From a virus, in IMG/VR virus record IMGVR_UViG_3300037137_001341, positions 1 through 64,000 of that record: a stretch of 64,000 nucleotides of DNA. One strand, 5' to 3'. The position numbers and the translations under genes are program-made. The notes below the pieces were generated by a model. That model did no database searches. It was not told the DNA's origin and was given only the letters and a program-made list of their open reading frames with translations. The number at the start of each line of letters is the position of its first letter. Within the stretch, counting starts at the first letter, position 1. This document shows positions 1,282-61,383 of the stretch, one piece after another.

Positions 1282-1533
1282 ATGACCGAACAAGAGAGAG
1301 CGGACGTGCAGATGCTCCTGGATGCGCTCCCGCGTTGCTGGCCTGGGAACGGAGGGCGCTGTAATGAGGTTGCTGTGCGGTCGCATCCTGGGCCGGTGAT
1401 CGGTGAGCGGACGCTGCGGTGTGCAGGGCATCCGGGTGAGGAGGAAAACGAGTTCGAGGAAACCGCGTCTCCAACACGCTGGGCCTCCGTGGTCGAGCGG
1501 TTTGTAACTCAAGGATTCAGGAGTTCACGATGA
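1282..1533 (+). CDS. Hypothetical protein
   Basis: ORF in a translationally coupled run; start uncertain (1249 or 1282). Confidence 0.5.
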   Translation: MTEQERADVQMLLDALPRCWPGNGGRCNEVAVRSHPGPVIGERTLRCAGHPGEEENEFEETASPTRWASVVERFVTQGFRSSR

Positions 1534-17497: not shown

Positions 17498-18832
17498 GTG
17501 ACCTACGACTACGAGCCCAACGCTCCGATCGACCGCCTCCGCTGGGTGGCGAAGACGTACGAGCACATGCCGGTGGTCGCGTGGGAGACGATCCGGGTCG
17601 CGCTGAACACTCTCGGTGTTGAGCTTCTCCAGCAGGAGAACGCGCTCTTCGATGGCACCGATGGCACCTGGGGCGTAGCCGCATCCTCGCGGGAGATGCA
17701 CTGGCGCAACGAGTTCGGGTTCGAGCGAGGTATCCGTGGCGCTCTGACGGCGAGACGGATCTCCGAGCTACTTACGATGCTTGAGCCGGAGCTTCCGCCG
17801 GATTCCGAATACGACTTCCTCTTTCCGTGGGTCGCCGCGCAGCTAGGACCGATCGCGAAGCGGACGCAGCGCGCCTGGAAACAGGAGCAGGAGGGTCGCA
17901 TCACGCATCCTCACGCGATGCACTGGTACGACGAGGCACCGATTTTCACAGCCATCGCGGAGGCGCTCACGCGGCGCGGCACCGCCATCGCTCAGTGGGC
18001 GCTCGCGAATCACATCGATCTCGGTAGGGTGACGGCCGCCGAGGCGATCGAAGCAGCGAAGAACTTCAAGGTCGTCGTCCGTGTGCCGCAAGGCCCAGTC
18101 GTCTACGAGTACGGCGACGGCTGGACCGTGCAGGAGCTTCCGCCGGAGGCGCTCGAAGCCGAGGGTAAGGTGATGCAGCACTGCGTAGGGACGTACTGCG
18201 AGCAGGTGCGCAGAGGAGACACCGTGATCTACAGCCTTCGCGATCCACAGGGGCAGCCGCACGTGACCATGGAGTTTCTGCCCGCAAGCGGTCGGTTCGA
18301 GCAGATTTACGGCAAGCAGAACGAGAGGCCGAAGCCGGAGTACGAGGCTCGGGTACGTGCGTTCATCCGTGACAAGTTCGACGCGGCTCCCGCGGCGATG
18401 CTCATGGCGGGTGCAGATCCGAAGAGTTTGGATCTGCGCGGCGCGTACCTGCGCGATGCGAACCTGCGCGATGCGAACCTGCGCGATGCGAACCTGCGCG
18501 AAGCGGACCTCGGCCGCGCGACTTTGGCCGCCGCGAACCTGACCGGCGCGAATCTGAGCTACGCGAACCTGACCGCCGCGAACCTGACCGGCGCGAACCT
18601 GAGCTACGCGAACCTGACCGGCGCGAACCTGAGCTACGCGAACCTGACCGGCGCGAACCTGAGCCGCGCGAACCTGACCGGCGCGAACCTGACCGGCGCG
18701 AACCTGAGCTACGCGAACCTGACCGGCGCGAACCTGAGCTACGCGAACCTGACCGGCGCGAACCTGAGCTACGCGAACCTGACCGGCGCGAACCTGCGCG
18801 GCGCAAACACCGAAGGAGCCGTCGGGCTGTGA
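17498..18832 (+). CDS. PcfJ-domain protein with C-terminal pentapeptide repeats
   Basis: EGKVMQHCVG.Y, IYSLRD, QIYGKQN; then about 25 ANLxx repeats. Confidence 0.85.
   Translation: MTYDYEPNAPIDRLRWVAKTYEHMPVVAWETIRVALNTLGVELLQQENALFDGTDGTWGVAASSREMHWRNEFGFERGIRGALTARRISELLTMLEPELPPDSEYDFLFPWVAAQLGPIAKRTQRAWKQEQEGRITHPHAMHWYDEAPIFTAIAEALTRRGTAIAQWALANHIDLGRVTAAEAIEAAKNFKVVVRVPQGPVVYEYGDGWTVQELPPEALEAEGKVMQHCVGTYCEQVRRGDTVIYSLRDPQGQPHVTMEFLPASGRFEQIYGKQNERPKPEYEARVRAFIRDKFDAAPAAMLMAGADPKSLDLRGAYLRDANLRDANLRDANLREADLGRATLAAANLTGANLSYANLTAANLTGANLSYANLTGANLSYANLTGANLSRANLTGANLTGANLSYANLTGANLSYANLTGANLSYANLTGANLRGANTEGAVGL
18432..18810 (+). repeat. 15-bp coding tandem repeats (pentapeptide)
   Basis: GCGAACCTGACCGGC / GCGAACCTGAGCTAC / GCGAACCTGCGCGAT units. 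Confidence 0.9.
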
Positions 18833-36322: not shown

Positions 36323-36718
36323 TCAGTGGACAACGATCACGTCATCGAAGCTATCGAGCACGTCCCGCGCAGTGGCGGCGATCTCGGGGTACTCTCTCGC
36401 GTAGAATCCGTCCGCATAGTCGGGGTGATCGGTGTCCGTCACGAGCACCCACTCCGTCCGCGTGGCGACCGCGTCGACCTCTTCGATCAGACGGCGCAGC
36501 GCGGCGAAGTTTTCGCCACCGCAGAAGCCCGATTCGAGCGCGGCCTTTGTCAGACGCGCCAGCTGTTCGTCGGGTCGCGCGAGCACGCGCGCTACGTTGG
36601 AGTAGACGATCAGCCCGTCGCCGGGCTGGAAGGCCCGGCGGATCTTGCGGACCGCGCGCTCGATTCGATCGCCATGGAACATGCTGCCGGATGCGTCGAG
36701 AACGTAGAACGTGGACAT
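36323..36718 (-). CDS. Minimal vWA-like domain protein
   Basis: VLDASGSM (MIDAS DxSxS), GGEN, LVTD. Confidence 0.65.
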   Translation of the reverse strand: MSTFYVLDASGSMFHGDRIERAVRKIRRAFQPGDGLIVYSNVARVLARPDEQLARLTKAALESGFCGGENFAALRRLIEEVDAVATRTEWVLVTDTDHPDYADGFYAREYPEIAATARDVLDSFDDVIVVH

Positions 36719-36752
36719 ATGCTGTGCTCCGTGTGTGACAGGTAGGGTCAGG

Positions 36753-36803
36753 TGGCCCGCCGCGCCGGGGTCGAACCGGCCGCGCCCCCGGACGGGGCGG
36801 CGG
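36753..36803 (-). ncRNA. tRNA-like mini-RNA (acceptor stem + T-arm + NCCA, no canonical D or anticodon arm)
   Basis: CCGCCGC-16nt-GCCGG-TTCGACC-CCGGC-GCGGCGG-G-CCA; intergenic. Confidence 0.65.
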
Positions 36804-36812
36804 GGCATGTGC

Positions 36813-36962
36813 TCAGCGGCTCAGGGCCCGCAGCGCGTCGAGCCCGCGGGCGATGCCCCGCGCGACCCGCTGCGCATCGCGCAGGCCAAACTCGTGAATC
36901 AGGGCCCGCAGCGTGTCGAAGTGCGCGCCGTCGTCGCTCGCGTCGATCTGGGTCGTGGTCAT
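36813..36962 (-). CDS. Small hypothetical protein MTTTQIDASDD... (49 aa)
   Basis: GGGAG SD; internal DxLRAL repeat. Confidence 0.5.
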   Translation of the reverse strand: MTTTQIDASDDGAHFDTLRALIHEFGLRDAQRVARGIARGLDALRALSR

Positions 36963-37039: not shown

Positions 37040-38116
37040 TCAGAGGGTGAAGGCGCTCAGGTCGATGGCCGGCGTCGCGGCGTCCGCGGCGGGCTCCGAA
37101 GCTGGCGCCTCGGGGTCGCGCTCCGCAGCGCCCAGCGTGGCGCCCTCGGCTTCGAGCCAGTCCGGGATCTCCAGATCCGCGGCCGACTGCGCCGCGGCAT
37201 AGGCCGCCGCAATCCCGCTGCAGATCCGCTCCAGGCGTGCCGCGTGGCCCGCCAACATGTCCCGCACGGGGCCCAGGCTGTTGAGCAGCGCGACCGATTC
37301 GGACCGGCGCCGCGCCAGCGTCGCGTACTTCGCCTTGCCGGCGATCTTCTCGCCCTTCAGCTTGGCGAGCAATTCCGCCGCCTGCTTCTCGGCGTCGTCG
37401 ATCACGGCGTCGGACATCGCCGTGGCATTGTCGCCGTGCTGCGTGACGTCCACCACGGACGCCCGGAGCCCGGTGCGCGTGGTCGGATCGTAGTACATGG
37501 CCCGGAGTTCCCGGAGACAGGCGACGACGCGCTCCGCGGTCGGGTCCCCGGCGCGCAGGACATATGACCCGCGGGCAATGAACCGGTAGGCGTGAGCCTC
37601 TTCGAGCACGACGGACAGGATCCGCGAGACGACGGCCGCGTCAGCGTGCGGGACAAGGCGCAAGGCCTGGCGGCGCAGCTGGTCAGCGAACGCCATGCAG
37701 GCGGGGTCCGCGGCGCCGCCAATCGGCGGGGCGACAAAGATCCCGGCGGGACACGAGAAGACCCGCGCGCCGGGCACCTTGGCCGCCTGCTCCGTGCCAG
37801 TCTGCACGCTGCGCTCTACCTGATAGGACGTGACGTGATCCCCGTCCTTGTGATCCAGTTCCGTGACCGAGAGCCCGTCGCGCCGGTTGGCGCCGACCCG
37901 GCCGACGACGAGCGAGAGCGCCCGCACCTCGTCCACGTCGCGCATGCGCTTCGCGGCCTTGCTCAGTCCGTGCCGCTCGAAGAGCGCCGCGAGATCCTCG
38001 CGGGGGGCGTCCGTGAACCCGGGGTACAAGACCCCGGTCTGGTAGGCGACGGTCGCGCCGCCCTTGGCAGCGTCGGCGACGAGCGCCTCGGCGGATTCGA
38101 TGGAACGTAGGGACAT
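37040..38116 (-). CDS. Hypothetical protein (possibly DUF6744-like), C-terminal SAFTL tag
   Basis: 358 aa, helical C-half, near the MoxR/vWA genes; family assignment tentative. Confidence 0.65.
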   Translation of the reverse strand: MSLRSIESAEALVADAAKGGATVAYQTGVLYPGFTDAPREDLAALFERHGLSKAAKRMRDVDEVRALSLVVGRVGANRRDGLSVTELDHKDGDHVTSYQVERSVQTGTEQAAKVPGARVFSCPAGIFVAPPIGGAADPACMAFADQLRRQALRLVPHADAAVVSRILSVVLEEAHAYRFIARGSYVLRAGDPTAERVVACLRELRAMYYDPTTRTGLRASVVDVTQHGDNATAMSDAVIDDAEKQAAELLAKLKGEKIAGKAKYATLARRRSESVALLNSLGPVRDMLAGHAARLERICSGIAAAYAAAQSAADLEIPDWLEAEGATLGAAERDPEAPASEPAADAATPAIDLSAFTL

Positions 38117-38770: not shown

Positions 38771-38774
38771 ACCT

Positions 38775-38934
38775 CACATGCCCAGGAATGGGGGTCGGAC
38801 CCCGTGCGGAATCGACCGTTATGATAAACTCAGAGAAGTATAACGATGGGGGGGTGCAGCCTTGTGATAAAAAACTTTATGTTAACGTACGGGGTCTGGA
38901 GCCCCCGAGCCCAGCCCCCATTCCTGGTCATGTA
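38775..38934. promoter_or_regulatory. Divergent control region: inverted motif pair flanking an AT-rich core
   Basis: CCCCCATTCCTGGGCATGTG (-, 38775-38794) and CCCCCATTCCTGGTCATGTA (+, 38915-38934); AT-rich at about 38819-38890. Confidence 0.8.
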
Positions 38935-39199: not shown

Positions 39200-40396
39200 A
39201 TGGGAAGCCTCGCCACAATTCACGCCGCAACGGACGCGGCACCGGTCATTGACCTGGCCGACGTCCGGCGCCGCCTCACGGCGAACCGCACGGCGCTCGC
39301 CGGCCGGTTCTGGGAGCGCGCGGACATTCTGCAGGGCTTGGACGTCGCTGCAGTCGCCGCGGAACATGTGCTCATGGTTTCGCCGCCTGGCACGGCGAAG
39401 TCTGACCTTGCCCGCACGTGGGCCGCGCAATTCGCGGGCGTCTACCGGGAGGATCTGTTCACCCGGCAGAGCACGGAGGCGGACCACCTCGCGTACCTGG
39501 ACGTCGGCAAGTTCAGCACCCCACCGCACGTGTACGTCTACAAGACGGAGGGCAAGATCACGGAAGCACACTTCGCGTTCGCGGACGAGTGCTTCAAGGC
39601 CACGGGCGGCTTCCTGAACGCCCTCCTCGGGTGGCTCAATGAGCGCAGCGTGCGCGGCGGGCATGTGTCCCCCTTGATCACGTGCGTCGCCGCCAGCAAT
39701 GAGTTTGGCGAAGACGAAAGCGTGGCCGCGCTCGAAGATCGGTTGCTGATCCGGTACGAGGTGACGCCGATCGGGAAGCGAGCAAACCGGCTGGCCTTCC
39801 TCGCGGCCAGCGCCCAGCCCGCCGCGCCGCTCACATTGGAGCCGATCACGGTGGACGAGATCCGGGCGGCACATGTCGCGGCCCGGTCGCTGCCGGTCGA
39901 CGCCCTCGTCGTCGAGGCGGTAGCCGACGTCCAGGATGCGCTGAGGGGCGCCGGGGTCTATGTCTCGGACCGCCGGGCCCGCAAGTGTATCCGAATCCTG
40001 CAGGCCTATGCCTGGGTCACGGGGAGCGCGACGGTCGAGATCGACCACGTTGACTTCCTCCGGGATGTGCTCTGGCGCCGGCCGGAGGACAAGCCCGCGG
40101 TGCAGACTGCGCTCGGTGCCGTGAACCGGGGCATGATCGGCGAGATCAAGGTGATCGTCACCCGGCTCCTGGACATGTACCACGAGGCCAAGGGGCAGGC
40201 CGACTTTCCGAGCCGCGCCGCTCGCATCGCGGAGCAGCTGGATCTCGGCGGGCGCGAGATCAAGGCCAAGTACGGTGGCCGGATCCCGGACGCGGTGAAA
40301 GAGCGCGCCAAGGGCTACCTCGGCGAGCTTCGCAGTGCCTACGAGCACTGCAAGCAGGTGGACGCAAAGCTCCCCTACGCGGGGGGCGGCGTCTAA
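39200..40396 (+). CDS. MoxR/RavA-like AAA+ ATPase
   Basis: SPPGTAKS Walker A, FADECFKA Walker B, ASNE, ALEDR, SDRR. Confidence 0.9.
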   Translation: MGSLATIHAATDAAPVIDLADVRRRLTANRTALAGRFWERADILQGLDVAAVAAEHVLMVSPPGTAKSDLARTWAAQFAGVYREDLFTRQSTEADHLAYLDVGKFSTPPHVYVYKTEGKITEAHFAFADECFKATGGFLNALLGWLNERSVRGGHVSPLITCVAASNEFGEDESVAALEDRLLIRYEVTPIGKRANRLAFLAASAQPAAPLTLEPITVDEIRAAHVAARSLPVDALVVEAVADVQDALRGAGVYVSDRRARKCIRILQAYAWVTGSATVEIDHVDFLRDVLWRRPEDKPAVQTALGAVNRGMIGEIKVIVTRLLDMYHEAKGQADFPSRAARIAEQLDLGGREIKAKYGGRIPDAVKERAKGYLGELRSAYEHCKQVDAKLPYAGGGV

Positions 40397-40404
40397 GAAT
40401 CTCC

Positions 40405-40439
40405 CCCGGCCACGGCGGCACCCAGCGGCCGTGGCCGGG
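40405..40439 (+). terminator. 12-bp GC hairpin between the ATPase and vWA genes
   Basis: CCCGGCCACGGC/GCCGTGGCCGGG; no U-tract. Confidence 0.4.
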
Positions 40440-40506
40440 CTACTCGGGTGACCGTGCCAACGGTACGATCTCCCGACTAGCCCGCTGCAACCCAAACGGA
40501 GGACAC

Positions 40507-41673
40507 ATGCTCACGTTCGCACAAGCTCGACGACGTCACAGCTTCTTCGGAAGCGTCGTGGACGCCAATAACGAGGGCCTCGCAGCCGACGCTTACGCCG
40601 GGGTCACAGGCCTGGGCGGCGAAGCCGGCGGCCTGGTCACGCTCGCGGTCGCCGATACGATGCCCACGGAATATGCCGTGCTGCTGGCGACCGATGACAT
40701 CGCCGCCGCGTTCGCGGCCAGCTGCGCTCTCGAAGCGTTCGCCGAACAAGTCCCGCCGCGGACACCGTACGAGGCACGCAAGATCGCGGACGAGGGCTGG
40801 CGCCGGTTCCGCGTGCTGGCCGACCAGGCCGGTCACCAGGATCACGGGCTCGGCGGGGACATGTCCGCCGCATGGGTCGTGTTCAAGACCGTGCAGGATC
40901 TCCAGCCGGACCCCGAGAAGATCAAGCGCATCGCGCTGCTCGCCGGGCGCATGTACCAGGCGCTCCGCGGCCAGAAGGATCGCCGCGTCAAGGGGATCCC
41001 GGAGGAAGTGATCGGGACGGAAACGGGCGGCGACGTCGCTGCTCTGCTCCCGTCAGAGTGGGCCCTGCTCGCAACGGACCCGACGCGCCGGCACCTGTTC
41101 GGCCAGATCGCGGAACGCCGCGCGCTGCAGTACGAGCGGGCCGGCAAAGAGAAGAAAGCTCGCGGTCCCCTGGTCATAGCCCTGGACGAATCGGGGTCGA
41201 TGGCGGAAGGGCGCGACGAATGGGCCAAGGCCGCGATGACGGCTCTCACGCGGATCGCGTGGGAGGAGAAGCGGCCCGTCGTGATCGTACACTTCAGCAC
41301 GGCAACCCGCGTGCAGGTACTCAAGCCCGGCGACAAGGCGGGTGTGGTCAAGGCGCAGCACACGTTCTTGGACGGCGGAACCGACATCGGCGCCGCTCTC
41401 CGGGTCGGCGTGGACGAGGTTGCAGCCCTCGCGACGCAAGGGCACCGCGGGGCCGACGTCGTGCTCGTGTCGGACGGCGGCGACGCCGGCCAGCGTGTGG
41501 GCGACGCCCTGAAGGATATGTCCAAGGCGGGGACGCGGCTCTGGAGCATCGCGATCGACACGCCGTTCCACGGTCCCCTGAAGGACCAGGCGTCGGAGTA
41601 CATCCACCTGACCGACGCGGACATGACCAGCGCAACGGGCGCGAAGAAGCTCGCCGGGGCGGTGACGCCGTGA
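40507..41673 (+). CDS. vWA-domain protein (ViaA-like)
   Basis: [26 protein letters not shown]. Confidence 0.9.
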
Positions 41674-42739: not shown

Positions 42740-43144
42740 ATGCCCCCCTATGGACGAGACGAGCAGGTTCAAGCCCTGCACATGCTGAACGTGCTGGAGC
42801 GCGCCAAGGCGCTGATTGCGGCCATCGCGTCATCCGGCGGGATCGCCAAGGCGGATCTGTCTCAGGAGGGGATCCGCGACGCGCTCCGCAGCCTGTTCGA
42901 TGAGACGAGCAAACTGCAGGTGTACGAGTCACGAGCCGCGGCACGCGGCACCCTCTCGAAGCTGGACGACGAGGGGCTCGCTCTCGCAATCAAAGGCGTG
43001 CGGGATGGTCGCATCCTGACGGCTGGCGAGCAGGACGTGCGAAACGCGACGCCCGAGCAGATCGCGGAGGCCTTCTCGCTGGACGACGTCGAGCCCGTCA
43101 AGGCTCCCGAGCCCGGCAAGCCCGAGGACGCTTTCTCTCTCTAG
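42740..43144 (+). CDS. Hypothetical protein with duplicated EAFSL/DAFSL tag
   Basis: ...EAFSLDDV...EDAFSL*. Confidence 0.7.
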   Translation: MPPYGRDEQVQALHMLNVLERAKALIAAIASSGGIAKADLSQEGIRDALRSLFDETSKLQVYESRAAARGTLSKLDDEGLALAIKGVRDGRILTAGEQDVRNATPEQIAEAFSLDDVEPVKAPEPGKPEDAFSL

Positions 43145-47469: not shown

Positions 47470-47900
47470 GGCAGCGCCCGAAGGTACTGCCGGAAGGCCC
47501 GGTTCGAGAGGGCCGGGATGCCCAAGGCGTCGCTGCGCCGGCTCCGCACGAGCATTAGCATGTCCGCACCGGGCTCCCCCGTGACCATGTGCAGCGCGAG
47601 CGCGGCGATGAACGCCGAGCGGTTCCGTCCCATCTGGCAGGTCACGAGGACCCTCCGTCCTCTGCGCATGTCCCTCGCGACGGCCTCCGCGGCTGTCCAG
47701 GCGGTCATCAGGTCGTCTGCCGTCGGCTCCGACGAGTCATCGAACGGGCAGTGCCGCACCCGCACGCCCGGGAAGGCCGCTGCCGGCGGCTGGTACTCCT
47801 CGGCCGCGAAGACGATGACGTCGAAGCGCCCCACGTAGTCCCCCGGCGGGGGCGCGGCGCCCACGTAGAGCCCTTCCACGATGCGGCTGGCGTCTGCCAC
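47466..47900 (-). CDS. Dual-specificity protein phosphatase
   Basis: LYVG, PFDD, VTCQMGRNRS (CX5R). Confidence 0.85.
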   Translation of the reverse strand: MADASRIVEGLYVGAAPPPGDYVGRFDVIVFAAEEYQPPAAAFPGVRVRHCPFDDSSEPTADDLMTAWTAAEAVARDMRRGRRVLVTCQMGRNRSAFIAALALHMVTGEPGADMLMLVRSRRSDALGIPALSNRAFRQYLRALP

Positions 47901-47961
47901 GGGCGGCAGAGTACCCGAAAGCCGCTGGGACCGAAATAGGCTGGTCTGTTATCGTAACGGG

Positions 47962-50900
47962 ATGCCTAGACCGAACAGGCCTGAGCTAGCTCTGCTCCGG
48001 GGGAAGAGTACGGCCGAGGCGCTGGCGAGGTGGACGGAGAGCTTCGCCGGGGGCGACCGGGAGACGGCCGAGAAGTACGCGGCGATCCTCTCTCGCTTCA
48101 CCGGCAAGCAGGCCAGCGGGGCAGAGTACGAAGCGTACATGGGGGCGTACTCCCCGGCGACTCGGCGGGCGTACTCCTTTGCTCTGACGGAGTTCTTCGA
48201 GTGGCTAGCCACGAAGCACAAGCGCGTCGTTCCGCCGCCGCAGGTCACGCGGAAAGATGCGGAGGACTACGTCGAGTGGCTCATCACAAGGCCGTACTCG
48301 CTGGAGGGAGAGAAGCTCCGCGATGGTGATCAGCGGGAGCGCCTCACGCTGTACGAGATCGTCGGCGAGCTTGGCTCCGCCGACATTCTGAGCATCGCGG
48401 CAAAGACGCCTGGATGGCTGCGCACAGCACATCCCGCCCCGGGCGTCGAGATCGACAGGGGATGGCTCAATCGCGAGCTTGGCCGCATGGTCCTGCACGA
48501 TCTCCTGGTGCGCTCGCCGACGATGGAGGATCTTCGCCGTGAGGACGCGCGCATCGGCATCGGGGTGTTCACTCTGCTCGTCCCTGACGGCGACACGATG
48601 CGGGAGATGCCGCTCGAAGAGATATTCTCGTACACGCTGCCGCGAGCACGCGCTGTCTCTCGAACAACGGTCGTGGTGCGCGTCGCCGCGCTCACATCCT
48701 TCTGGCAAGCGCTGATGGAGGCGGACAATTCCAGCGGGGCAGGCGCCCTCGTGCGACACAACGTGTTCTCGGACGTAGGAAACCGCGTGCGCGTCGGACT
48801 CGCCGCAGATCGCCGCGCGAGCAGAGCACGCAAGGGACGGCTGACGCCGGAGCTAGTGGAGCGCCTGCTCCGGGTGGCCGATGGTCCGTCTCTTGCTGAG
48901 AAGCGTGATGCTGCACTCCTCTGGTTCCTGGTTCTCACGGGAGCCAGGGTTACCGAGATCACGCGCATCCGCAGAGGACGTCCCCCGGCGGCAGAGGCGG
49001 CCCGCTGGCCCGGCTGGTACGACGAGCGGGCAGTGCCACCTGCGGTCGAGCTTGTGCGCAAGCGCGGCTTCCGGCAGAGGCTCCCGTTTCCACCGTACGC
49101 GCTCAAGGCGCTCGCCGCGTTTCAAGCGGAGCTTGCTCGCCACGCGCCGCTGACCGGCACGCAAAGTGACAACCAGAACGAGCCTCACTACCTCGCTCCA
49201 ACAGCGCCAGGCTGGCGCTACAAGGCACTAGCTGAAGAGCCTGACGCGCCGCTCTTCCCACCGGTCAAGTTCTGGGGGGCCAACTCATCGCGCAACTATC
49301 AGGAGTTCAAGCCGAACGCGAACGTACGACCCGACTACCGTCGCTCGATGACACGCAACGGCATCGACGCCATCCTCAAGAAGATCGCCAAGAAGGCCGG
49401 GTTCACCGAGGAGGAGCAGGCGCTCGCCCACACGCACGCATTTCGTCACTTCGCGGCGACGGCCATGGCGCGCAGAGGCAAACCGATCCGGGAGATCCAG
49501 TACATGCTCGGGCACGAGTCGCTCGTCACGACCGAGCGCTACGTGGAACCAGAGACCAGCACGGAGGCTCTATCCGGCCAGAACGAGATCCTAGACTTCA
49601 TCGCTGGCGCTGCGCATGAGCCGCCGGCACCAGCAGAGCCGGAAGCTCCGCGACAGCCACCGACCAGGCCTGCGCGCGTCGTGGAGACATATGCCGTGCC
49701 TCCAGGGCGACCTGGGCGTCCGCAGGCTGGCCCGCGTCCCGAGAAGAAGCGCCGGCCGCCTCCCGAGGTACAGGCCCCGGAGGCAGGCGGGATGCCGGCA
49801 CAGTCCCCCCGTGTCGTGCCGGAGGCACAGGTCGAGCCTGGTCAGGGGCTCGTCGCCATCGCACCAAAGGGAGGGGTCGAGCCGCCCCATGTGTCGCAGG
49901 TGCGCGGGAACATATCCCCGCCGCCTACCCCGCTCGAAGCCTACGGGGCTCTTGCGCCGCACCCGCCGGGAGTTCCGCCGACGCACCCGAGCCAGATCGC
50001 GTTCACGCGCGTGAACCTGCGAACCGCGAAGCCCAAGGAGCGGGCGCTGGTGAACCTGGCCCCGCCGGGGGACAAGCGCGACCTTGTGCAGCAGGTCACA
50101 TGGCTGCGGGCGAACTACGACCCGTGGCCCATGAACTACGGCATCGACGAGCAGTGGCTTCTGCCCTGGTTCGCCCGCGGCTCCGCTTCCAGCGGCGGCG
50201 AGGTCACCGTGGACATCATATCGAGGACCGGGGAGAGAAAGATCGTCGTTGTCCCGCCCATCCCCGTGCTCTCGCACTACCAGATGGATCCAGGGCTCGC
50301 ACCGAAGCACGCGCCGAAGCTCTGGCAGAGCATCGATCAGATGCGGACCCGCTGGCTACGCACGGTGCCTACGAAGGCGTTCGGGCTCGATCGTTGGTGG
50401 GGCATGTTCCTGCAGGCTCGGTTGACTCTCGGACAAGTCACCAAGGGCAAGTTCACGTGGGTGCCGTTCAACACACCGGCAGAAGTCGGGACACAGATCC
50501 GTTCCCACGACGACGAGTACCTGAGCAAGTGGCTGGAGATCAACGCGGAGCGATACGGCACGACGATCAACGCCTTCGAGGACATCAGGCGCATCGAGCG
50601 CGCCAGCGAGGACGACTCTGATGAGGCCCAGAAGGAGTGGGAGGAGTTCCAGAGCACATGGCGGGACGCCTCCCTCATGGGCGTGTCCCCAGCCGCAGAG
50701 CTACCGGACTGGTTCATCGCGGACGATCCTGTGCGTGACATCTACGACCGCGACCCGGAGGAGTGGCGGTGGTTCTCGACGTGGTTCGGCGCCATCACCG
50801 GACAGAACCTGACGCCGGTGCGCGACGAGACGCTCAAGGCCGAGGAGGCGTTCGCTCTCGAAGAGCGGAGTAACAGGATCCTGCAGGCGCGCAAGCTCCT

Positions 50901-52236
50901 GGAGGGGTACTACGAAGCGGTCACGGATCTGCGCACCTCGAAGGGTGATGAGCGTGAGGGTGGGCACGCCTCCCTCAAAGCCTACGTGGCGCAGCTGGCC
51001 GAGTACGGGATACCGGACCCGGCGCAGATGCTCAAGGAAGGCAAGCTACGGAAGAAGCAGCGCCGCGAAGCCAGCATCGAGCAGCTGCTGAACATGGCCT
51101 TCCCGGACGTCGGCGTGGAGGTCGTGGACCCGAACGTGCTCAGGAGCCAGCTGTTCGACGCGGACACGCTCCGCCTGGACATGTCCCGCAAGACCATCTC
51201 GCACACGGACGAGTTCCGCAAGCGCTTCGCCGCGCGCTACGACGGGCGGGACTCCGAGTGCGTCGTGCGGCGCGCCGCCCGCGGCATGTGGGAGCATGTG
51301 AAGCGCAACGGCATCCCGGTCGCCCGAGGAGAACAGCGCGCTTCCCAGTACAGCCTGCTCTACTCCGTCATGCTCTCGTACATGGCCTGGATCTTCCCGT
51401 GCCCTGCGGAGATCGAGGAGCGCATGGCCAAGGAGGGACGCCTGGGCGCCGAAGCGCGGCTGGTCTGGTTGAACGGTGTGCGCAGCGCGACGCAGCACAT
51501 GGCCCGCATCGAGCGCGACGCCGACGAGCCAGCGCTGCTCGCTGTTGCCGCCGAGGATGGCCTGGACTCAAAGAGCGCCGAGGAAGTGCTGGAAGCCGGG
51601 CTCGTCGTCGATTCTGTGCGGGCACAGGTGGCGGTGCCGCCCCCCGAGGTGGCAGAGGCCGTGGCCAAGAGCGCCGTGGAGTCAGGGCAGGTCGCCGTGG
51701 AATCCGGCGGCGTCGTCGTGGTGCGGCCGACGGTGTTGCGCCGCCGAAAGTCGCCGAGCGCGCTCCGGGAAGAGGCCCGTGAGGAGAGGTCGCCCGTACC
51801 TGCGCCCCCCGCTCCCCGCGCACCAGAACCCACGGCGCGCGAGCGCATTGCCGAGATGAGAGGCCGGAGAGGCGCCGTGGTCGAGCTTGTCCAGGAACGC
51901 GCGCAGACCACGGGGACATACCTGAGCGGCGTGGAGGAGCCCGAGGTTGAGGAGCAAGAGACCCCGCTGGAGCGGGAAGCGGAGTACATGGAGCCAGAGG
52001 TCGAGCAGTACGAGGGGCCGCAGCTGCCCAGCATGTTCTCCGTGGGTGGCGAACAGCACGAATCGGCCGAGACGACCACCCACGGGCTCGCCTACGAAGA
52101 ACTGGAGCGGAACGCTGCGCCGCCCAGGTACATGACCCTGGGGGCCTACGCTGCGGGGGCCGACTATGTCGCGAACGCCGAGGAGGTGCTCCCGAGCGCC
52201 ATCAGGATGATGGCCGCGATGACGCTGCCGTTCTAG
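47962..52236 (+). CDS. Giant tyrosine recombinase fusion protein (1424 aa)
   Basis: SPATRRAY core-binding region; TGARVTE, RKRG, HAFRH, LGH, TTERY; followed by a Pro-rich linker and about 750 aa of unknown sequence. Confidence 0.85.
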   Translation: MPRPNRPELALLRGKSTAEALARWTESFAGGDRETAEKYAAILSRFTGKQASGAEYEAYMGAYSPATRRAYSFALTEFFEWLATKHKRVVPPPQVTRKDAEDYVEWLITRPYSLEGEKLRDGDQRERLTLYEIVGELGSADILSIAAKTPGWLRTAHPAPGVEIDRGWLNRELGRMVLHDLLVRSPTMEDLRREDARIGIGVFTLLVPDGDTMREMPLEEIFSYTLPRARAVSRTTVVVRVAALTSFWQALMEADNSSGAGALVRHNVFSDVGNRVRVGLAADRRASRARKGRLTPELVERLLRVADGPSLAEKRDAALLWFLVLTGARVTEITRIRRGRPPAAEAARWPGWYDERAVPPAVELVRKRGFRQRLPFPPYALKALAAFQAELARHAPLTGTQSDNQNEPHYLAPTAPGWRYKALAEEPDAPLFPPVKFWGANSSRNYQEFKPNANVRPDYRRSMTRNGIDAILKKIAKKAGFTEEEQALAHTHAFRHFAATAMARRGKPIREIQYMLGHESLVTTERYVEPETSTEALSGQNEILDFIAGAAHEPPAPAEPEAPRQPPTRPARVVETYAVPPGRPGRPQAGPRPEKKRRPPPEVQAPEAGGMPAQSPRVVPEAQVEPGQGLVAIAPKGGVEPPHVSQVRGNISPPPTPLEAYGALAPHPPGVPPTHPSQIAFTRVNLRTAKPKERALVNLAPPGDKRDLVQQVTWLRANYDPWPMNYGIDEQWLLPWFARGSASSGGEVTVDIISRTGERKIVVVPPIPVLSHYQMDPGLAPKHAPKLWQSIDQMRTRWLRTVPTKAFGLDRWWGMFLQARLTLGQVTKGKFTWVPFNTPAEVGTQIRSHDDEYLSKWLEINAERYGTTINAFEDIRRIERASEDDSDEAQKEWEEFQSTWRDASLMGVSPAAELPDWFIADDPVRDIYDRDPEEWRWFSTWFGAITGQNLTPVRDETLKAEEAFALEERSNRILQARKLLEGYYEAVTDLRTSKGDEREGGHASLKAYVAQLAEYGIPDPAQMLKEGKLRKKQRREASIEQLLNMAFPDVGVEVVDPNVLRSQLFDADTLRLDMSRKTISHTDEFRKRFAARYDGRDSECVVRRAARGMWEHVKRNGIPVARGEQRASQYSLLYSVMLSYMAWIFPCPAEIEERMAKEGRLGAEARLVWLNGVRSATQHMARIERDADEPALLAVAAEDGLDSKSAEEVLEAGLVVDSVRAQVAVPPPEVAEAVAKSAVESGQVAVESGGVVVVRPTVLRRRKSPSALREEAREERSPVPAPPAPRAPEPTARERIAEMRGRRGAVVELVQERAQTTGTYLSGVEEPEVEEQETPLEREAEYMEPEVEQYEGPQLPSMFSVGGEQHESAETTTHGLAYEELERNAAPPRYMTLGAYAAGADYVANAEEVLPSAIRMMAAMTLPF

Positions 52237-58879: not shown

Positions 58880-59188
58880 TCAACGGCGTGCAGCGGCCAT
58901 CAGGGCAGAAAGTCCGAAGATAGCCACCGAGCCGAGGACCAGGGGCTTCCACCCGACGTCCTTGACAGCGTCCCGGACCATGAACCCGAAGAGCCCGAGC
59001 CCGCCGAGGAGGGCGAACGTGCCAGCCTCCTGGTTCTTCGGCAAGGCGTCCGTCTTGAAGAGGTCCCCATCACGGATCGCGCGGCCCGCCTCGTAGGCGA
59101 TGAGCCCCCCACCGACGATGCCGGCGAACGCGAGGACAGCCGTCTGGGTCTGTACCGTCGTCTCCGGGAGAAGCTCGTAGTCGCTCAT
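58880..59188 (-). CDS. 3-TM membrane protein
   Basis: Three hydrophobic helices, ends in RR. Confidence 0.65.
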   Translation of the reverse strand: MSDYELLPETTVQTQTAVLAFAGIVGGGLIAYEAGRAIRDGDLFKTDALPKNQEAGTFALLGGLGLFGFMVRDAVKDVGWKPLVLGSVAIFGLSALMAAARR

Positions 59189-61383
59189 GGGGAGCAGCGC
59201 ACTTCGGCCCACTGGATCTCTCCCACGCACCTGAGCGCGGGGGCTCCGCCTGGGAGCACGACACTGAACGTGATCTCGTGGGCCGCCGTCGCTACCGCCG
59301 TCATCGTGACTCCGAGCGCCCCAGGATCTAGCCCACCGGACGCTACGGATGCGTCCACCACGGCGCCTCCCTCGTCATGTGCCAGGACGTCGAACCAGAT
59401 CGACTGCCGTTGCGTGGATGGCGCCGCACTCTCCGCGACGATCAGCATGACGCGGAAGGTGTACGCGAAGTGGTCCCGCGTCAGGAACGGCTTCACCGTG
59501 AAGTTGGTGAGGATCCCGACTACGCTCGGGCCGGCGGGAGTGAGCCGTCCCATAACCACGGTGCCCGACTGACAGCCGCCGTCCGCGCCGAAGCGCGGAC
59601 CGCCACCGAGTACATGCCCGGACTCTTGCATCGAGTAGCCGTCCTCTCCGCCCGCATGGGAAGCGAACGCGGTCGACGTGCTGTTCTGGCCCTGCGCGTG
59701 GGAGTCGTTACCGCTTGCCGTGCACGAGATACCCTCGGCGTGCGAGTTACTGCCGCTTGCCAGTGCGCTCGCGCCCTCGGCGTGGCTCGCGATGCCCTGC
59801 GCAACGCTGTGGAATCCCTCGGCATGTGACGTAGGACCGGACGCGACGCTCGTGTCTCCTTCGGCATGAGAGTTCAGACCACTGGCGATCGTTGTGATGC
59901 CTTCCGCGTGGGCATTATCCCCACTTGCAAGAGCGCTGTTCCCTTCGGCGTGCGAACGATCCCCCTGAGCGTTGCATGCGTCGCCTTCGGCGTGAGAAGC
60001 GAAACCGCTAGCAGATCCGCTGCTGCCCTCTACGTGCGAGTTCACGCCAAGGCTCTGTCCGGCCGATCCCTCGGCATGTGAGTTCGCTCCCTGCGCCAGT
60101 GTTCCTACACCCTCGGAGTGAGAGTTCCCTCCCGTCGCCTGCGTCGCGTTGCCCTCGGCGTGAGACACCTGACCGAGCGCTTGCGTCGAGCTTCCTTCGG
60201 AGTGCGAGAAGTCTCCTACGGCATGCGTCGAGAGCCCTTCGGCATGTGCCGAGTCACCGTTCGCCAGAGTCGCACTGCCCTCGGCGTGGGATGATGGCCC
60301 GTTCGCATGCGCCTGGAGGCCCTCGGAGTGAGACTGCAGGCCGTTGGCCTGCGTCTGCCTTCCTTCGGCATGAGCGAAGTTCGCCGTCGCCTGCGACTGG
60401 ACGCCTTCAGCGTGCGATGCCTCACCGCTCGCGACCGTCGAGTGCCCCTCAGAATGTGACGAGAGCCCGGATGCCAGTGATGCCGTTCCCTCGGCATGTG
60501 ACGCGACCCCAGATGCTGTCGTGAAGTTCGGGCCTTCGCCCTGCCCCTCGGCGTGGCTGTTCGTCCCGGTCGCTCTCGTAAGGTGGTTCTCCGCGTGAGA
60601 TCGGGTGCCGCTCGCGAGGGTCTGCTCGCCCTCCGCGTGAGAGTGGTCCCCGCTCGCCGTACAGGACGCTCCCTCGGCGTGTGACACGTCTCCGCTGGCC
60701 GTGCTGTCGGCCCCCTCGGCGTGCGAGTGCCTGCCGGTGGCATCACAGGACACGCCCTCGGCGTGCGAGTTCTCGCCGCTGGCGATCGATAGTTGCCCTT
60801 CGGCATGTGACCGCAGACCGCTCGCCTGGGTCTGAGTTCCCTCGCAGTGGGACGCCTCGCCGCTCGCCGTCGAGTTGAGGCCCGTGGCGAAACTCGCGTG
60901 CCCGCTGGCCGTCGTCCCGTCGTTCTCGGCACATGCGTACAGACCGGTAATCGTGACGTTGTTCTTGACGCAGCCCTCCACGATCGGGCCGGCTATAAGC
61001 GTCCCGAAGATCACCAGCCCCATCACTCGTTGGCCCTTCGCCGCTCCGGCGATCTGGACATCGAGGATTGGGTCCGTGATTGTGAGCGCCTCGATCTGCT
61101 TCTGCAGATCCTCGGCAGTCGCTGCGAGCAGGATCCGCAGGTTGTCGATGTTCGCCCCGCCGACCATATTGGACCGGTCAGCGCCCTCGACCTCCAGGAA
61201 GAACATGTGCCCGTCGCCCGCGCCCGTGAGCGTGATGGATGCGACGGTCGAGTTCGGGAGAGCCTCAAACAGAGGAACTATTTTTGCGAGTATCTGCGCC
61301 CCCATGTCTTCCGCTGTTGCAGACTGAATTACCGCGCTTATCGCATTGGCGGTACCACCGAGGATTGTTCCGTATCTCGACAT
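59185..61383 (-). CDS. Fibre/adhesin with YadA-head-like 14-aa repeats and N-terminal GDGH-family domain
   Basis: About 30 (ASGxxSHAEGxxT)-type repeats; GAGDGHMF...AGAAKGQRVMG. Confidence 0.85.
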   Translation of the reverse strand: MSRYGTILGGTANAISAVIQSATAEDMGAQILAKIVPLFEALPNSTVASITLTGAGDGHMFFLEVEGADRSNMVGGANIDNLRILLAATAEDLQKQIEALTITDPILDVQIAGAAKGQRVMGLVIFGTLIAGPIVEGCVKNNVTITGLYACAENDGTTASGHASFATGLNSTASGEASHCEGTQTQASGLRSHAEGQLSIASGENSHAEGVSCDATGRHSHAEGADSTASGDVSHAEGASCTASGDHSHAEGEQTLASGTRSHAENHLTRATGTNSHAEGQGEGPNFTTASGVASHAEGTASLASGLSSHSEGHSTVASGEASHAEGVQSQATANFAHAEGRQTQANGLQSHSEGLQAHANGPSSHAEGSATLANGDSAHAEGLSTHAVGDFSHSEGSSTQALGQVSHAEGNATQATGGNSHSEGVGTLAQGANSHAEGSAGQSLGVNSHVEGSSGSASGFASHAEGDACNAQGDRSHAEGNSALASGDNAHAEGITTIASGLNSHAEGDTSVASGPTSHAEGFHSVAQGIASHAEGASALASGSNSHAEGISCTASGNDSHAQGQNSTSTAFASHAGGEDGYSMQESGHVLGGGPRFGADGGCQSGTVVMGRLTPAGPSVVGILTNFTVKPFLTRDHFAYTFRVMLIVAESAAPSTQRQSIWFDVLAHDEGGAVVDASVASGGLDPGALGVTMTAVATAAHEITFSVVLPGGAPALRCVGEIQWAEVRCSP

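Follow-up and report, generated by a model that had tools for sequence, protein, structure and literature searches.

Within a row of tightly packed phage genes, a stretch of 51 nt can be read as the top half of a tRNA, i.e. an acceptor-like stem and a T arm that end in an encoded CCA, with a short linker in place of all other arms. This raises the question whether the likeness is meaningful and, if so, whether the segment acts within the message that carries it, as a small RNA of its own or as DNA. The segment lies in a stretch of 64,000 nt (the window, positions 1 to 64,000 of the IMG/VR record IMGVR_UViG_3300037137_001341). The whole virus record (G000) comprises 116,237 bp with 67% GC, is estimated to be about 85% complete and derives from sediment metagenomes; the sequencing runs listed for it are four DNA runs from sediment, out of four studies. 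The original prediction described a tRNA top-half mimic in exact tRNA register and proposed a decoy for tRNA-targeting defences, a substrate of the phage nucleotidyltransferase (NTase) or an mRNA-processing signal, with an attP remnant as an alternative. Based on its sequence and its relatives, we describe the segment as a single-copy, CCA-bearing and strongly conserved tRNA-like element with a putative role in RNA processing.

Results

Anatomy and position of the element

Read on the minus strand from 36803 to 36753, the element is CCGCCGC / CCCGTCCGGGGGCGCG / GCCGG-TTCGACC-CCGGC / GCGGCGG / G / CCA, exactly as originally reported (Table 1). The parts of a canonical tRNA top half are all present, namely a 7-bp acceptor stem, a 5-bp T stem, a UUCRANN loop, a discriminator and CCA in register. 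The stretch GGTTCGACCCC (36767-36777) matches the T-arm signature GGTTCRANYCC, and the T loop follows the U54-U55-C56-R57-A58 pattern with a G53-C61-type closing pair. The stem can be extended to 8 bp by a pair between the C preceding the element and the discriminator G.

Table 1. Positions of the element, its parts and the neighbouring or related features; coordinates are those of the window unless a contig is named.
Feature	Position	Strand	Basis or remark
tRNA top-half mimic, acceptor/T-arm minihelix with encoded GCCA, 51 nt	36753..36803	-	sequence, unique motif match, shuffles, relatives
Acceptor-like stem, 5' strand CCGCCGC	36797..36803	-	position 4 covaries with position 44
16-nt linker in place of D, anticodon and variable arms	36781..36796	-	CCC/GGG hairpin, variable loop, then GGCGCG
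T-arm mimic GCCGG / UUCGACC / CCGGC	36764..36780	-	fits the GGTTCRANYCC signature (PMC1920247)
Acceptor-like stem, 3' strand GCGGCGG, with discriminator G and CCA	36753..36763	-	invariant except for the covarying position
Conserved 5' flank CACATGCC	36804..36811	-	kept in all relatives
P0002, 49-aa ORF 5' of the element	36813..36962	-	homologue in L046
P0003, 358 aa, conserved gene always preceding the element	37040..38116	-	relatives
P0001, 131 aa, weakly vWA-like	36323..36718	-	GGAG at 36727-36730
tRNA-nucleotidyltransferase-like protein, 583 aa	18846..20597	+	PolyA_pol head and C-terminal tRNA-ligase-type 2',3'-cyclic phosphodiesterase domain
1451-aa ORF with tyrosine-recombinase (XerC/D-like) domain, residues ~257-583	47881..52236	+	rest without family match
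NTase remnant of G001, first ~56 codons	L129 1501-1659		synteny
Minihelices of G003	L125 236-292, 533-600, 930-1000; L123 1487-1560		covariance model

The TGA stop codon of P0002 (36815-36813) ends 9 nt 5' of the element, and a 34-nt spacer separates the CCA from the ATG of P0001 (36718), which has a GGAG before it. In this spacer GC3 is about 45% (counted manually) compared to 82-94% in the genes, which makes the site non-coding and intergenic, as originally assigned. The element is part of a cluster of small, closely spaced genes that are read leftward from the divergent region 38771-38845; that this cluster is an early operon, as originally stated, is not established. An ATG at 36808 shares its frame with P0001, and a start-like CACATG lies 2 nt 5' of the element, so that translation and the element may influence each other. 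Among the 85 ATG genes of this phage, 18 start in the context CAC-ATG, more than in any other, and TGAGCACATG is one of its normal gene junctions.

The genes around the element offer few functional clues. For P0003 neither a family nor a fold match was found; Foldseek returned nothing at E<=0.001 for the predicted model (mean pLDDT 78), and with VIA-align the model gave generic helical-bundle matches only, at residues 225-330. Its C-terminus reads IDLSAFTL (37040-37063, minus strand), while that of the homologue in L029 and L083 reads DPFRI. P0001, which has a DxSxS motif, is specific to this phage, and the slot 3' of the element that it occupies is variable. A homologue of P0002 is recognizable by eye in L004 and L026 as well and is absent in L029. 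Across the divergent region lies a gene pair on the plus strand (39200-41673) coding for a MoxR-type AAA+ ATPase and a vWA/CoxE-like protein.

Motif frequency and folding

For a strict motif, defined as a 7-bp acceptor (G-U allowed), an insert of 0-60 nt, a 5-bp T stem, TTCRANN, one further base N and CCA, the element is the sole match on both strands of the 116,237-bp record. Third-order Markov shuffles of the genome (n = 200) gave 54 matches without CCA and none with it, from which the chance expectation for the CCA-bearing motif is about 0.005 per genome. The element is beyond chance. As an expectation of this size is insufficient when many windows are inspected, the decisive evidence comes from the comparison with relatives. 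Only one other GGTTCRANYCC motif exists in the record, at 42766 (plus strand); it has a perfect 5-bp stem (GCAGG-TTCAAGC-CCTGC), lies 26 nt into the gene 42740-43144 without an acceptor-like partner and is probably due to chance.

Judged by folding energy alone, the element is ordinary for a sequence of 90% GC, with z = +0.2 against shuffles for the 51-mer and +0.8 with flanks. Its minimum free energy (MFE) structure consists of a 5-bp closing stem and two hairpins (5+5+7) and differs from the 7/5 register of a tRNA; it is better by 3-5 kcal/mol in three of the four sequence versions, with a tie in L029. Both registers comprise a 12-bp stack on a continuous 3' strand, keep the 7-nt T loop and leave GCCA free. 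The alignment of relatives fits the two equally (98% vs 97% of cells paired), and a G to A change in column 21 (L029, L083) costs a pair in the MFE model only. The exact tRNA register claimed originally can be formed, but the predicted MFE structure adopts the other register.

A GC-rich three-helix fold right after a stop codon, with an MFE structure that departs from the tRNA register, would also be expected of a structured RNA whose tRNA likeness is incidental and which has another role in cis. It might be a terminator or attenuator lacking a U tract, an mRNA stabiliser, a device that blocks the CACATG start or one that couples translation across the junction. The preferred CAC-ATG start and the normal junction context fit such roles, as a ribosome that terminates 5' of the element or initiates at this ATG would need to melt it. 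We nevertheless regard an incidental likeness as quite unlikely. It leaves unexplained the invariant T loop, the 12-bp stack with N-CCA in register and the end of conservation at the CCA, and similar T-arm-bearing elements are found after stop codons in unrelated phages (see below). The missing U tract also speaks against it; a canonical intrinsic terminator is rejected on the same ground, the tail of the element being CCACCTGACCC.

Conservation in related phages

Starting from the MoxR gene, which is 2.4 kb away from the element, we reached L004, a phage contig with conserved synteny that belongs to a 76-kb record; it contains the same element behind a P0003 homologue and a small ORF. In a pattern scan of metagenome contigs the element was recovered in L026, L029, L046 and L083 as well, while the remaining matches, about 100, are chance matches in coding sequence. 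In total six sequences are compared, of which four differ; they occupy five contexts, as L004 and L026 share one. The slot is constant in all five, behind a gene of the P0003 family, and P0003 identity among the element-bearing relatives is 43-46%.

Conservation of the element by far exceeds that of its surroundings. Pairwise identity is 86-96%, whereas the 60 nt on either side average 62% and 65%, and 43 of the 51 columns are invariant. The eight variable columns comprise three in the hairpin loop, one in the linker, T-loop position 59, two that form a compensatory pair and one that is unpaired, i.e. seven are located in loops or linker or are compensated. Hairpin loop columns 12-14 vary (GTCC, GTCA, GCCA, GTT) on an invariant hairpin stem. 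At pair 4-44 the window shares C-G with L029 and L083, while L046, L004 and L026 have U-A. In L004 and L026 an uncompensated change turns one T-stem pair into a C.A mismatch, which on the opposite strand would be G.U. This covariation is weak, with one pair among four distinct sequences and a score that 76 of 500 shuffles reach. The search for covariation in related genomes, suggested together with the original prediction, thus turned up one compensatory C-G to U-A change, and the interpretation as a tRNA top-half mimic fits both this pair and the conservation.

The conserved block has sharp ends. It consists of CACATGCC(C), the 51 nt and one further C, and in all five contexts it ends one base past the CCA. 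On its 5' side the stop codon of P0002 or P0003 precedes it directly, at a stop-to-element distance of 8-11 nt, or about 44 nt in L004 and L026 after a 31-nt insert. The content past CCAC is different in every context, with the vWA-like gene in the window, a 27-aa hydrophobic ORF in L029 and L046 and other genes in L083, L004 and L026. This small ORF, MTTDDVTMALCALTAVLAAIGLWTARR, is located about 30-115 nt 3' of the element, is conserved between the two contigs that have it and is cleanly missing from the window, L083, L004 and L026. The insert (L004 4233-4272, minus strand; also in L026) lies between CACATGCCCCG and the element and contains a perfect extra hairpin, CCCCGGCTCG-GATT-CGAGTCGGGG, with CCCCG duplicated.

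Could the block be conserved for a peptide starting at the ATG at 36808? Indels, namely an extra C after the flanking ATG (L029, L083) and a hairpin loop one base shorter (L004), break every frame, and the predicted peptides are wholly different. This coding explanation is rejected, and selection acts on the nucleotides and not on a peptide.

The same data bear on the possibility that the element has no function and is what remains of a degenerating tRNA gene, or a GC-rich palindrome that arose by chance. GC-rich sequence folds well anyway, and with very many windows inspected, a motif with an expectation of about 0.005 per genome is bound to appear somewhere. Given an identity of 86-96% beside a protein that is about 44% identical, together with the compensatory pair and the sharp block ends, we consider this very improbable indeed.

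Conservation above the need of a mere fold points to sequence-specific recognition, recent spread or a role at the DNA level, and it is this very high conservation that keeps trans-acting and DNA-level explanations alive. At the DNA level the element might be a junction for cassette shuffling, an att-like core or a site for protein binding or replication. Its nucleotide conservation at a mosaic border, where the downstream genes differ from relative to relative, fits such a site, as do the 31-nt insertion adjoining the element in L004 and L026 with its duplicated CCCCG, the CACATG on both sides in several contexts and the tyrosine-recombinase-domain protein of 1451 aa encoded 11 kb away. Its ORF is unusually large for an integrase. 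Against a DNA-level site, the compensatory change preserves pairing, no phage tRNA resembles the element and the recombinase gene does not adjoin it, and the direct terminal repeats of the related phage G002 suggest a non-integrating lifestyle. In addition, the 25-nt 3' half has neither a tRNA nor a prophage copy in 185,579 species genomes. Overall a DNA-level role appears distinctly improbable.

This comparison with host tRNAs, which the original prediction had named as a check, covered exact matches of the 25-nt 3' half in these 185,579 genomes. It yielded two matches only, both within Chloroflexia coding sequence and not in a tRNA. Because no tRNA in these genomes carries the 3' half, an attP remnant is unlikely; moreover, there is no integrase adjoining the element, the nearest recombinase-domain gene (47881-52236) being on the other strand, and no standard bacterial tRNA known to us has an acceptor starting C1-G72, C2-G71 together with G73. 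The original argument against attP, that it would not need the complementary 5' strand, gains force from the finding that this strand is conserved and covaries.

Searches beyond this set marked the limits of the element's distribution. It was not found in G002, a complete and more distant genome of 138 kb whose P0003 is 42% identical. No close relative of the phage was detected among 50,697 deposited phage genomes, where short-query searches gave chance matches in coding sequence, and scans with P0003 and with P0001 as single proteins gave no matches. A loose pattern, CACATGCC...GGTTCGA...CCA, retrieved ordinary tRNAs only from viral contigs.

Comparison with known tRNA-like RNAs

ARAGORN, run on the window and on the entire record, detected neither a tRNA nor a tmRNA gene, and Rfam gave no relevant match at E<=10 for the window region and L004, including tRNA, tmRNA, C4 and Y RNA. 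A canonical tRNA is excluded by the lack of D and anticodon arms together with these negative searches, and no deposited or annotated phage tRNA resembles the element.

The element shares its order of parts with the tRNA-like domain (TLD) of tmRNA and the TLD-only gene of phage DS6A (Hudson, Lau, Williams 2014, PMC4131195), which also combine an acceptor, a short insert, a T arm and CCA. The DS6A gene is likewise phage-encoded and devoid of an anticodon arm, with a suggested role in titration. A tmRNA domain, however, requires G3:U70 and A73, whereas the element has G3:C70 and G73, and this identity was rejected in view of the negative ARAGORN and Rfam results as well. The insert GGATTCGAG of L004 was considered as a tmRNA D-loop region; the order of parts misfits, and the resemblance was treated as coincidence.

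Bacterial Y RNAs (YrlA; Chen et al. 2014, PMC4201824) are non-coding, contain a tRNA-mimicking module and also occur in phages. They are larger, however, and have a Ro-binding stem. A Y RNA was discarded since no Ro60/TROVE gene was matched in the 116-kb, ~85% complete record, in which the controls were positive, and Rfam was negative.

To our knowledge, RNase P substrates of the C4/M3 type have no T-arm mimic. C4 of P1 and P7, M3 RNA and polycistronic operon mRNAs (PMC11143913) do resemble the element as helices embedded in phage RNAs or mRNAs that end in RCCA and can be cleaved by RNase P. There is no sequence or Rfam relationship, however, and C4/CI RNAs are antisense regulators with defined targets; membership of the C4/CI antisense family (P1, P7, P4) was dismissed on the absence of an Rfam C4 match in the window region and L004 at E<=10. 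A spliced, tRNA-shaped intron is also rejected, as the length differs between the window (51 nt) and L004 (50 nt) and a search for an RNA ligase (RtcB) gave no match.

tRNA 3'-end enzymes and a possible decoy

From its domains, the 583-aa NTase-like protein (Table 1) resembles an enzyme that repairs tRNA 3' ends; the phage itself encodes no tRNAs. The relative G001 possesses the element, while its syntenic NTase gene is cut to a 56-aa N-terminal remnant between conserved neighbours. As the element is kept without an intact NTase, it is independent of this enzyme, which weakens the proposal that it is a substrate for the phage NTase.

The main rival to a processing signal is a mini-tRNA of about 51-52 nt, CCA-ended and anticodon-less, that is released and acts in trans as a decoy or sponge. 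Its targets might be EF-Tu, RNase P, the CCA-adding enzyme or toxins with which defence systems alter or cleave the 3' ends of tRNAs. Such an RNA would account for the invariant CCA and discriminator, for conservation that stops right after the CCA and for a number of invariant positions (43/51) greater than a cleavage signal needs. The fusion of NTase-like and cyclic phosphodiesterase domains further suggests a conflict over tRNA 3' ends. On the other hand, the element is kept in G001 despite the loss of the NTase, and as a single copy that lies in an operon and lacks both a separate promoter and a separate terminator, it gives no evident route to high abundance. Without an anticodon loop it would not decoy anticodon nucleases, only readers of acceptor, T arm or CCA. 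Its acceptor (C1-G72, C2-G71, G3-C70, with G73) matches no standard identity set known to us. There is a precedent in the TLD-only tmRNA gene of mycobacteriophage DS6A, as a similar molecule inhibits tmRNA (PMC4131195), perhaps via titration of SmpB (PMC4131195). Taken together, we hold a trans-acting decoy to be unlikely, and a free decoy or sponge RNA of about 51 nt working alongside the phage tRNA 3'-end repair enzyme would be rather less likely still.

Similar minihelices in other phage contigs

The element of the window is an anticodon-less acceptor/T-arm fold that follows a stop codon within a cluster of genes on one strand. Folds of a comparable type were seen in phages unrelated to it. 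G003, an unrelated 44-kb phage record, has four acceptor/T-arm minihelices lacking CCA (Table 1), each 3-12 nt past a stop codon, although the covariance-model matches to these copies are weak (E from 4e-4 to 0.07). The copies at the two record ends probably form one cluster on a permuted genome. A small hairpin, TTGCCCAnnTGGGC, follows three of the four minihelices, and each minihelix is 5' of the ribosome-binding site of the next gene. Searched against deposited phages, the G003 element matched T arms of tRNA-Cys only.

In L015 (about 1320-1400, plus strand) and L066 (minus strand, around 1929-1950) a minihelix is situated between a stop codon and a GAGGAG ribosome-binding site. It is composed of TCCCCGC, a 13-nt linker, GCCGG-TTCGAGC-CCGGC and GCGGGGA, again with no CCA. 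A pentapeptide-repeat protein of L015 is 53% identical to the product of the window gene 17498-18832. The minihelices of G003 and of L015 and L066 are without an in-register CCA, whereas the window element is single-copy with an invariant GCCA; the other covariance-model matches in G000 have E>=0.04 and either lack the T loop or lie inside coding sequence. We found no description of such phage elements in the literature.

A putative processing signal in cis

Among the functions considered, we tentatively favour a t-element-like processing signal that would act in cis and be recognised by RNase P together with enzymes that trim 3' ends; we place this reading a little short of probable. The mRNA-processing signal of the original prediction fits best with the position after a stop codon, the module border and the sharp block ends, but cleavage itself is a prediction. 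In such a mechanism the leftward genes would be transcribed as a polycistronic message, in which the element folds as a tRNA top half. Host RNase P would cut at its 5' edge, with the 3' RCCA and the T loop as determinants, and trimming from the 3' side would halt at the CCA. The message would be split, and upstream P0003 and P0002 could then differ in stability or translation from the downstream cassette, with one fragment keeping a structured 5' or 3' end. The element is positioned at the border between the conserved gene block and a variable gene cassette.

Known enzymology offers a basis for this model. RNase P prefers a 3' CCA, which enhances cleavage, and it cuts mRNAs and non-tRNA substrates (PMC11143913); passages in two papers list mRNAs and the phage C4 and M3 RNAs among the non-tRNA substrates (PMC11143913; PMC12710915). 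In plant mitochondria, t-elements mark sites where RNase P and RNase Z cut at mRNA ends (PMC1920247). These t-elements (Forner et al. 2007, PMC1920247) resemble the phage element in that they are part of a longer transcript, lie near gene ends, combine the GGTTCRANYCC T-arm signature with an acceptor-like stem and serve, as proposed or shown, as cis signals for RNase P/RNase Z. The signature, the stem and the location next to a gene end are all found in the window. In contrast, t-elements are organellar, non-canonical cloverleaves of about 70 nt without an encoded CCA, to which C/A is added afterwards (PMC1920247), whereas the phage element is 51 nt long, has no anticodon arm and encodes its CCA.

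The processing signal is favoured because of the tRNA-like anatomy, the uniqueness and conservation of the element, the pair 4-44, the sharp block ends and the similar elements elsewhere. It is weakened because the fold is no stabler than that of shuffles and the MFE prefers 5+5+7, because only one pair covaries, with a C.A mismatch in L004 and L026 in addition, and because G002 is without the element. In many bacteria an encoded CCA blocks RNase Z, so that formation of a 3' end at the element poses a problem for a processing signal.

If the element is cut by tRNA-processing enzymes, dsDNA phages would share with mitochondria the 'tRNA punctuation' that splits operon messages, and a layer of phage gene regulation would exist that is invisible to current annotation pipelines and RNA databases. 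The invariant encoded CCA makes it a clean test case, as it predicts exactly where RNase P would cut and where the 3' end would lie. Should the small RNA instead work in trans, it would represent a decoy reduced to the minimum of a tRNA, relevant to defence systems that attack tRNA 3' ends.

The conserved flank CACATGCC may be an 8-nt leader or a real or vestigial start-codon context. Leader positions -8 to -3 are named as contacts of the RNase P protein (PMC11143913). The same string occurs 37 times in the record compared to about four expected by a rough estimate from base composition, for instance at 59828, 60080, 60248, 60500 and 60809 (minus strand). A motif, CACATGCCGA(A/G)GG with T or G before it, is present five times inside the gene 59185-61383, which codes for a 732-aa protein containing a YadA head.
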